Origin: Escherichia coli
GTDB taxonomy: Bacteria; Pseudomonadota; Gammaproteobacteria; Enterobacterales; Enterobacteriaceae
DNA length: 64,000 bases
Assembly (NCBI RefSeq): GCF_013315695.1
Contig: NZ_CP054353.1
Direction: 5' to 3' (one strand)
How positions within the stretch are numbered: position 1 is the first letter of the stretch; the number at the start of each line of letters is the position of its first letter. Of the stretch, positions 1 to 1,504 are shown in pieces. The notes beneath the pieces were generated by a model. The model searched no databases. It had not been told where the DNA came from and saw nothing but the letters and a program-made list of their open reading frames with translations. The translations under genes and the position numbers were made by a program.

Positions 1-1504
1 GATAGTTGCTCCAGTAGTTCACCTGATCAGCCAGCGTCGCTTTCGGCGTATTCGCTTCCAGATACGACTGCAAATCAACCTGTTTTTCTGACGGCAGCGT
101 CAGATAACCCGGCAGGCTGGTTGAGAGCAGACCTAAGTCGGTCAGGCCCTGAATGTTGGAGTGACCACGCAATGCGTTCACGCCGCCACCGGCCATACCC
201 ATGTTACCGAGCAGCAGCTGGATCATCGCCATAGTACGGATGTTCTGCGCACCCACGGTGTGCTGCGTCCAGCCCAGCGCGTACAGGAAGGTGGTTGTGC
301 GATCCGGTGCGCTGGTGGAGGCCAGCACTTCACACACTTTCAGGAAGTCGGCTTTTGGCGTACCGCAGATGTTTTCTACTACGTCCGGCGTGTAGCGGGA
401 AACGTGCGCTTTCAGCAGGTTCCACACACAGCGCGGATGAGTCAGTGTTTCATCGCGTTTCGCATAGCCGTTTTCATCGAACTGATAGTTCCAGGACGAT
501 TTATCGTACTGGCGTTTTTCAGCGTCATAACCGCTGAACAGGCCATCTTCGAAAGCAAAATCATCACGCACCAGCAGGCTGGCGTTGGTGTAATGCTTAA
601 CGTATTCGGCGTTGATTTTGTTGTTTTCGATCAGGTAGCGCAAAACGCCAGACAGGAACGTAATGTCCGTACCGGAACGAATAGGTGCGTAAATATCCGC
701 CACAGAAGCGGTACGCGTAAAACGGGGATCGACAACGATCAAGGTTGCATCGTTGTTGTTTTTCGCTTCCATCGCCCAGCGGAAACCGACGGGATGTGCT
801 TCAGCAGCGTTACCGCCCATCACCATCACGACGTTAGCGTTTTTGATATCCACCCAGTGGTTGGTCATCGCACCGCGACCAAATGTTGGAGCAAGACTTG
901 CTACCGTTGGTCCGTGTCAGACGCGCGCCTGGTTGTCTACCGCCAGCATCCCGAGGGAGCGGGCAAATTTTTGAGTCAGCATCCCGGTTTCGTTGCTGGC
1001 ACCGGAGGCACACAGCATACCGGTAGAAAGCCAACGGTTTACCGTTACGCCCTGCTCGTTCTTTTCAATAAAGTTAGCGTCACGGTCAGCTTTCATCAGC
1101 TTCGCAATACGGGAGAATGCTTCATCCCAGCTAATACGCTGCCATTTATCAGAACCTGGCGCACGATATTCCGGGTAGCGCAGACGGTTTTCGCTGTTGA
1201 CGTAATCCAGCAAACCGGCCCCTTTCGGGCACAGCGCACCACGGCTTACCGGATGATCCGGGTCACCTTCAATGTGATAAATCGCTTCTCTGGCGTTTTT
1301 CGCGCCATCACCCAGGCTATACATCAATAGCCCGCAACCTACGGAACAGTATGTGCAGGTGTTACGGATCTCTTCAGCGCGTAATAATTTGTAGTTTCGC
1401 GCCTGAGCCAGTGCTTGCTTTGGGGCAAAGCCCAATGCCGCTACTGTTGTTCCAGCCATACCGCCCGCGCAGATTTTAAAAAATTGTCTGCGACTGACGT
1501 CCAT
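1..1504 (-). CDS. fdnG: Formate dehydrogenase-N alpha subunit (selenoprotein), 5' half; 3' end lies beyond window start. In-frame UGA (Sec) at 914..916
   Basis: ORF 917..1504 has a twin-arginine signal (RRQFFKICAGGMAG) and Mo-bisMGD enzyme N-terminus; reading continues in frame through TGA into ...UHGPTVASLAPTFGRGAMTNHW, matching FdnG around Sec196. Confidence 0.9.

Follow-up and report, generated by a model that had tools for sequence, protein, structure and literature searches.

The left end of the window, the 64,000-nt stretch of Escherichia coli DNA that was analyzed, holds the 5' part of fdnG. The gene lies on the minus strand at 1..1504, with its ATG at 1504..1502, and exits the window at the left edge; codons 1 to 501 of 1015 are present. 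Translation of the whole frame to the window edge gave a single in-frame stop, the TGA at 917..919 on the minus strand, which is codon 196 and appears in the translation as ...DNQARV*HGPTVASLAPTFGRGAMTNHW... Beyond this codon the frame continues for 305 further open codons, down to base 2. If the UGA is taken as selenocysteine, the peptide spanning codon 196 reads ...ARV-U-HGPTVASLAPTFGR. The initial annotation had described a TGA ending a minus-strand ORF whose frame stays open to the window edge. The TGA is real and in frame, and no second stop was found in the frame from 1504 to 1. Its position had been given as 914..916, which is one codon off, as those bases are CAC, the codon for His197. 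The listed ORF at 917..1504 (minus strand) encodes 195 amino acids, and its end coordinate, 917, counts the stop codon in. The wider range of 905..925 assigned to the feature encloses the corrected TGA.

The identity of the gene was also as first proposed, with RefSeq annotation, the fdnGHI context, NCBIfam TIGR01553, and PDB entry 1kqf all in agreement. The 501 residues in the window, with X at position 196, aligned over residues 1 to 501 with 1kqf chain A (1148 bits), the "formate dehydrogenase, nitrate-inducible, major subunit," which has its own non-standard residue, also given as X, at position 196 facing the UGA. The 1kqf structure consists of one chain of 1015 residues that includes this non-standard residue. 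Relative to the K-12 sequence of 1kqf chain A, the FdnG of the window has four substitutions (K44E, E127D, L342F, and E366A). More distant PDB matches, at about 541 bits, were Desulfovibrio enzymes named "selenocysteine-containing." The first 501 of the 1015 residues were enough to exceed the cutoff of the equivalog model TIGR01553 (formate dehydrogenase-N subunit alpha), with a score of 842.7 bits where 814.2 is required.

Two Pfam domains were recognized in the translated frame. The molybdopterin oxidoreductase Fe4S4 domain (PF04879, 61 bits) covers residues 46 to 104, at 1193..1369 on the minus strand, and the molybdopterin oxidoreductase domain (PF00384, 89.7 bits) covers residues 107 to 451, at 152..1186 on the minus strand, as a single stretch across the UGA. 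Because PF00384 is unbroken across codon 196, both pieces of the reading frame belong to one polypeptide. The translation also revealed S-R-R-Q-F-F-K at residues 4 to 10, within a Tat signal peptide assigned to residues 1 to 33 (1406..1504, minus strand); we take this motif to direct the export of FdnG by Tat, with a signal peptide of 33 residues. Codon 196 lies in the context V-[UGA]-H-G-P, which fits the U-H-x-P active-site motif that Table 1 of PMC13188914 gives for TIGR01553 selenoproteins.

The wider locus was read in a near-identical genome, E. coli MSB1_4I (NZ_LR898874.1). Direct comparison of this genome with the window found 8 substitutions in 64,000 bases, none of them within fdnG. 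The RefSeq annotation of that genome has one 3048-nt fdnG coding sequence running through the UGA, followed by fdnH and fdnI, which fall outside the window, and the operon is flanked by yddG (divergent, upstream) and yddM. The K-12 gene (PDB 1kqf and 1kqg) is the same gene, with its selenocysteine codon at 196 and the fdnGHI operon beside yddG. The window differs from K-12 in fdnG by strain-level substitutions only, with the SECIS unchanged, and in its neighborhood, where an intact porin gene and LRR genes follow downstream of yddG. Over its first 1.7 kb the window is 99.9 to 100% identical to fdnG of several of the E. coli genomes listed, in which RefSeq likewise has a single 3048-nt fdnG coding sequence followed by fdnH and fdnI. 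Of 5426 complete E. coli genomes, 5425 contain most of this 1.7 kb, nearly all at an identity of at least 95%, and fdnG is present in these 5425. A scan of the fdnG-yddG intergenic region for sigma-70 promoters and terminators found none. The fdn promoter is described as dependent on FNR and NarL, in which case a scan for the two-hexamer consensus could miss it. Elsewhere in the window, yncG is a nonsense pseudogene, with a TAG at 22211..22213.

The expectation that gene callers split or truncate fdnG was borne out in public databases, in which pieces of 195 and 803 amino acids exist as separate proteins. The exact 195-amino-acid product occurred on 436 contigs in public collections (NCBI, JGI/IMG, ENA, and Logan). 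Its cluster also contained an 803-amino-acid protein starting with MTNHWVDIK, a start that corresponds to the first ATG, 17 codons past the UGA. RefSeq/PGAP correctly gives fdnG as a single coding sequence.

Directly 3' of the UGA, where the initial annotation had suggested folding about 40 nt of the mRNA, a SECIS hairpin is present. The Rfam model SECIS_3 (RF01989), the bacterial SECIS of the fdnG/fdoG type, matched over its full length (model positions 1 to 59 of 59) at 864..922 on the minus strand with 84.3 bits against a gathering score of 63 (E = 2.5e-20 in the local search). The same element was recovered when both strands of the whole window were scanned at the gathering threshold (E = 1.4e-18), and this Rfam scan found no further SECIS in the 64 kb. 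SECIS_2 (RF01988), the fdhF-type model, scored just 28.8 bits on the element, against a gathering score of 70. Chance does not account for the in-frame TGA, given the end-to-end match to FdnG, the E value of 1.4e-18 for the SECIS model, and the TGA found at this codon in all 80 of the related loci described below.

With the U of the UGA numbered +1, the predicted hairpin extends from nt +3 to +48 (872..917, minus strand) and comprises a lower stem, an internal loop, and an apical stem-loop, with a minimum free energy (MFE) of -13.8 kcal/mol (z = -1.77). The apical minihelix, GGUAGCAAGUCUUGCUCC, at nt +15 to +32 (888..905, minus strand), is presumably the SelB-binding part; it is predicted to fold as ((.(((((...))))))) with -4.5 kcal/mol (z = -2.06), which gives an apical stem of 7 bp with one bulge and a loop of G23-U24-C25. 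The bulged U17 is at position 903, and the loop nucleotides G23 and U24 are at 897 and 896. The SECIS determinants that PMC8659212 describes for E. coli are a 17-nt minihelix (nt 15 to 31) located 11 nt from the UGA, together with U17, G23, and U24. The fdnG minihelix agrees with these determinants in fdhF numbering, with U17 bulged and both G23 and U24 in the loop.

The hairpin also conforms to a more general bacterial consensus. In the bSECISearch model, as outlined in PMC13188914, the loop has 3 to 9 nt, the upper stem has 4 to 16 bp, a G occurs early in the loop, the spacing between UGA and loop is 16 to 37 nt, and the MFE is -7.5 kcal/mol or lower. The fdnG hairpin agrees with all four parts of this model. 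The loop, GUC, has 3 nt, or 5 nt with A22-U26 open, and the upper stem of 7 bp is likewise within the limits. The apical loop opens with G23-U24, which provides the early G. The UGA occupies +1 to +3 and the loop begins at +23, leaving 19 nt between them. The MFE of -13.8 kcal/mol for 46 nt, or -10.3 kcal/mol for 38 nt, is below the energy limit, with z at about -1.8 relative to shuffled sequences.

Folding energy itself was unremarkable. The stability of the hairpin was not unusual relative to dinucleotide shuffles when segments of 50, 60, and 91 nt were folded (z = -1.03, -0.22, and +0.04, respectively), and trimming the segment to the hairpin gave z values of -1.8 to -2.1. A fold of about 40 nt was therefore indecisive on its own, and the covariance model and comparative data were used instead. 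In the register of the Rfam lower stem, which differs from that of the MFE structure, two of the pairs are non-canonical in the fdnG sequence. A weak pattern, defined post hoc, TGA-N11-GGT-N5-GT-N6-CC, had one match against 0.12 expected, and 11 of 100 shuffled sequences matched it as well. A second hairpin at +53 to +68, which appeared in both single-sequence and alignment folds, was rejected; its closing pair is broken in 13 of 81 sequences with no compensatory change.

The comparative data came from 80 fdnG/fdoG loci of Enterobacterales, with one genome scanned per species and both paralogues mixed, in genera including Escherichia, Citrobacter, Enterobacter, Klebsiella, Serratia, Yersinia, Proteus, Providencia, Photorhabdus, and Edwardsiella. 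TGA was present at the selenocysteine codon in all 80 loci, and the 48-mer formed by the UGA and the 45 nt after it was identical in 73 of them. Mean pairwise DNA identity was 0.994 inside this 48-mer versus 0.78 over the surrounding 1203 nt. At positions with an invariant amino acid, the modal codon was used by a fraction of 0.995 of the loci for codons +1 to +15 versus 0.669 elsewhere (Mann-Whitney p = 5e-10), and no other 15-codon window among the 401 codons had codon choice as conserved as codons +1 to +15. Nucleotides +13 to +32 were 100% invariant in the 80 loci. A near-invariant block in which synonymous variation is suppressed, with a per-nucleotide conservation of at least 0.90, extends from nt -3 to +68 (852..922, minus strand). 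These results demonstrate that the fdnG SECIS is under strong purifying selection at the nucleotide level.

The consensus structure that RNAalifold predicted from 81 sequences included the same hairpin, with 99.5% of the cells paired. No compensatory double-sided changes were found at its 20 pairs among the 65 distinct sequences of the 81, and the covariation score equaled the shuffle mean. Fifteen of the 20 pairs never vary, four vary on one side only, and one departs through unpaired cells only. The lack of covariation follows from the invariance of the stem in the Enterobacterales alignment. Because the stem is too invariant in this group, the absence of covariation neither supports nor contradicts the SECIS structure.

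The paralogue fdoG, for the alpha subunit of formate dehydrogenase-O, is located elsewhere in the chromosome with fdhD, fdoH, fdoI, and fdhE. Within one genome it shares with fdnG an identical stretch of 71 nt, from -3 to +68, and the selenocysteine codon is 196 in both, whereas overall identity is 74.6% at the nucleotide level and 76.9% at the amino acid level. This stretch (nt 583..653 of the gene, with the UGA at 586..588) is the longest run of identity between the two genes, the next-longest being 35 nt, and fdoG matches fdnG at all 57 nt compared after the UGA. In fdhF of K-12, the prototype that was dissected experimentally, the UGA is likewise followed by CAC GG, U+17 is bulged, the loop contains G23-U24, the minihelix closes with GG/CC, and the protein has the motif U-H-G-P. 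The two elements differ in the stem, which is AGCAA/UUGCU in fdnG and UGCA/UGCA in fdhF; in the length of the helix, which is one base pair longer in fdnG; in the loop, which is GUC (or AGUCU) in fdnG and GGUC in fdhF; in their lower stems; and in the position of the selenocysteine codon, which is 140 in fdhF and 196 in fdnG.

The selenocysteine machinery, which the initial annotation had expected elsewhere in the genome, was found in full in NZ_LR898874.1, used as a proxy because just 8 substitutions in 64 kb separate it from the window. In that genome the gene for tRNA-Sec (selC) is at 68720..68814, selA at 145823..147214, selB at 147211..149055, and selD at 2838751..2839794, and none of the four is marked as a pseudogene. 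When K-12 DNA for selD, selA-selB, and selC was used as the query against complete E. coli genomes, selD was found in 5425 of 5426, selA-selB in 5425 of 5426, and selC in 5424 of 5426. The 64-kb window itself contains none of the selenocysteine machinery and no tRNA genes.

One alternative is that the TGA is a true stop, so that fdnG would be a nonsense pseudogene or would encode two proteins, of 195 and about 803 amino acids. Mechanical ORF calling does end at 917, the two pieces are stored as separate proteins in public databases, and the window holds a genuine nonsense pseudogene in yncG. However, the TGA is fixed in 80 of 80 loci spanning many genera and both paralogues, and fdnG is retained in 5425 of 5426 E. 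coli genomes. The PF00384 domain crosses codon 196, 1kqf was solved as one 1015-residue chain whose residue 196 is non-standard, a SECIS directly follows that codon, and strong purifying selection persists 3' of it. We give a true stop virtually no credence. Another alternative is readthrough of the UGA without SelB, for example by misreading with a near-cognate tRNA-Trp or tRNA-Cys, in which case the conserved downstream sequence would have some other purpose. Sequence alone cannot prove which amino acid enters at the codon, and the unremarkable folding energy of the hairpin is compatible with such readthrough. It is nevertheless exceedingly improbable, as the curated SECIS_3 model is matched above its threshold, the SelB determinants U17, G23, and U24 are at exactly the fdhF spacing, NZ_LR898874.1 has the full set of sel genes, and close homologues in the PDB, at about 541 bits, are named "selenocysteine-containing."

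It might also be argued that recurrent conversion between the paralogues fdnG and fdoG, and not selection acting on an RNA element, has produced the extreme nucleotide identity around the UGA. The longest stretch that the two genes share unchanged, at 71 nt, falls exactly at the UGA, and the set of 80 loci mixes both paralogues. Gene conversion, however, homogenizes copies within a genome, whereas the 48-mer is invariant across genera in which the flanking sequences are about 78% identical. In addition, fdhF, which does not undergo conversion with these genes, has the same U17/G23/U24 architecture in a different sequence, and the conserved block fits the SECIS covariance model. We consider this origin of the identity very unlikely.

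The TGA at 917..919 on the minus strand is codon 196 of fdnG and almost certainly specifies selenocysteine, inserted through the SECIS and SelB, instead of ending translation. The initial attribution of a selenocysteine codon with a downstream SECIS to FdnG agrees with the SECIS_3 match, the TGA in 80 of 80 loci, and residue 196 of 1kqf chain A. Of the two outcomes that the initial annotation had named as refuting it, a missing hairpin and missing selenocysteine machinery, neither was observed. For K-12, Berg, Li, Heider, and Stewart (1991, J Biol Chem 266:22380), as cited in PMC13188914, found that the opal UGA of fdnGHI encodes selenocysteine, and a selenium-containing, full-length FdnG of 113 kDa is already reported, through that study and the 1kqf structure. 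The binding of SelB, the insertion of selenium, and the ligation of molybdenum by Sec196 are described in the literature on K-12 and would apply to the fdnG of the window by analogy. A role of the minihelix in SelB binding and UGA readthrough has indirect support in the invariance of nt +13 to +32 across the 80 loci.

In the mechanism expected from that literature, the mRNA just 3' of the UGA would fold into the SECIS hairpin with its apical minihelix at +15 to +32, and SelB carrying Sec-tRNA(Sec) would bind the minihelix. The tRNA itself would come from selC, and its charging would depend on SerRS, SelA, and selenophosphate made by SelD. As a ribosome arrives at the UGA, SelB tethered to the hairpin would place Sec-tRNA(Sec) in the A site, competing with release factor 2. 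The review PMC13188914 similarly places the SelB·GTP·Sec-tRNA(Sec) complex on the apical minihelix and has selenocysteine delivered to the UGA in the A site while the ribosome unwinds the lower stem. Translation would yield the catalytic subunit of formate dehydrogenase-N at its full length of 1015 residues, a protein exported by Tat. In this subunit Sec196 would ligate the molybdenum of the bis-MGD cofactor; from the crystal structure of FDH-N, we take Sec196 to be the molybdenum ligand of FdnG.

The constraint from -3 to +68 exceeds the roughly 40 nt of a canonical hairpin, and RNAalifold also pairs -9 to -2 with +44 to +50, where each of the common synonymous changes keeps a wobble pair. 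These observations could point to an extended element in fdnG and fdoG, with the UGA inside it and some 20 nt more beyond the hairpin, a proposal that we consider unlikely. The excess of conservation over the Rfam model consists of three synonymous sites in favored codons and may be codon bias. If an extended element does exist, it might add to what the minimal SECIS of fdhF provides by adjusting the delivery of SelB, the pausing of ribosomes, or the competition with release factor 2.

The gene fdnG is one of the three classic selenoprotein genes of E. coli, and its UGA and SECIS are already known, textbook features. The finding is of value as a quality check only and leaves the picture of selenocysteine decoding unchanged. 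The lesson is one for annotation. Naive ORF calling cuts fdnG at the UGA, and formate dehydrogenase-N will be under-reported wherever a pipeline has no step for selenoproteins.

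Nucleotide conservation and RNAalifold pairing drew attention to two minus-strand stretches that flank the SECIS hairpin of fdnG (852..871 and 920..931). With the U of the UGA codon numbered +1, near-invariant nucleotides in the fdnG/fdoG alignment reached +68, about 20 nt beyond the 3' end of the hairpin. In the same alignment RNAalifold predicted an outer pairing of positions -9 to -2, located 5' of the UGA, with +44 to +50. All of the common synonymous changes within these segments retained the pairs, with G or A opposite U and C or U opposite G. It could be that the outer pairing forms an extended SECIS helix. 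However, transition bias and codon preference alone could also be the source of such pair-keeping changes.

The internal stop codon of yncG, a glutathione S-transferase family gene (21866..22483, minus strand), is a useful contrast with the UGA of fdnG. The yncG stop is an amber codon (in-frame TAG at 22211..22213; translation ...GRTER*QFQRL...), and the Rfam scan of the whole window gave no SECIS match there. In RefSeq, yncG carries a pseudogene flag that cites the internal stop. Rfam matches on the plus strand included the sok antitoxin RNA (55451..55602; 109.4 bits), at a position corresponding to the hokB region of the near-identical genome NZ_LR898874.1, and the small RNA RydC (56162..56225; 90.5 bits).

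The intergenic region between fdnG and yddG contains an imperfect palindrome, TTGAG-GTAG-GTCAA (1624..1637, minus strand), that is similar to the FNR consensus TTGAT-N4-ATCAA. The fdn promoter is described as dependent on FNR and NarL. A scan of this intergenic region for the sigma-70 consensus did not yield a promoter.

Over the 64 kb, the window differs from NZ_LR898874.1 by eight substitutions (4826, 8111, 9951, 13320, 17848, 32124, 32286, and 63769), with no indels and no further differences. Therefore, the window comes from a strain very closely related to MSB1_4I, the source of NZ_LR898874.1, and need not derive from that record itself. RefSeq lists the first of two leucine-rich-repeat genes in NZ_LR898874.1 as two frameshifted or incomplete fragments, whereas in the window it is one unbroken open reading frame of 388 amino acids with a GTG start (4239..5405, plus strand). 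The second encodes 418 amino acids (5468..6724, plus strand), and both lie between a porin gene and narU.

Public records contain two annotation slips. RefSeq assigns the gene name fdnG to the paralogue fdoG at 5058900..5061950 of NZ_LR898874.1 (8901..11951 of the extracted region L008), where the mislabelled gene adjoins fdoH, fdoI, and fdhE. A 195-amino-acid truncated FdnG fragment, EFN8991448.1, bears the name "sulfate ABC transporter substrate-binding protein." The NZ_LR898874.1 segment with katG, rha, fdo, selC, and selAB (5.00-5.07 Mb and 0.02-0.17 Mb) is reversed relative to K-12 coordinates, and fdnG and selD retain the K-12 order, which implies that this genome carries a large inversion relative to K-12.

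Coordinates transferred from the NZ_LR898874.1 annotation place three copies of IS1A in the window, at approximately 19034..19731, 27818..28515, and 32080..32777. One copy is flanked by fragments of an MBL-fold hydrolase and an alkyl/aryl-sulfatase, each annotated as incomplete; another has mcbR on one side and pqqU on the other; and the remaining copy adjoins a truncated ortT. The third copy by position holds two of the eight substitutions (32124 and 32286). Isolate AF3 (NZ_OZ547117.1) is 100% identical to the window across fdnG. Its porin gene is interrupted by an IS1 that adjoins the sulfatase fragment, and it lacks the stretch corresponding to approximately 3840..19030, which comprises the leucine-rich-repeat genes, narU, narZ-narH-narW-narI, yddE, nhoA, yddH, and pptA. 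This arrangement suggests that AF3 lost the second nitrate reductase locus through an IS1-mediated deletion.
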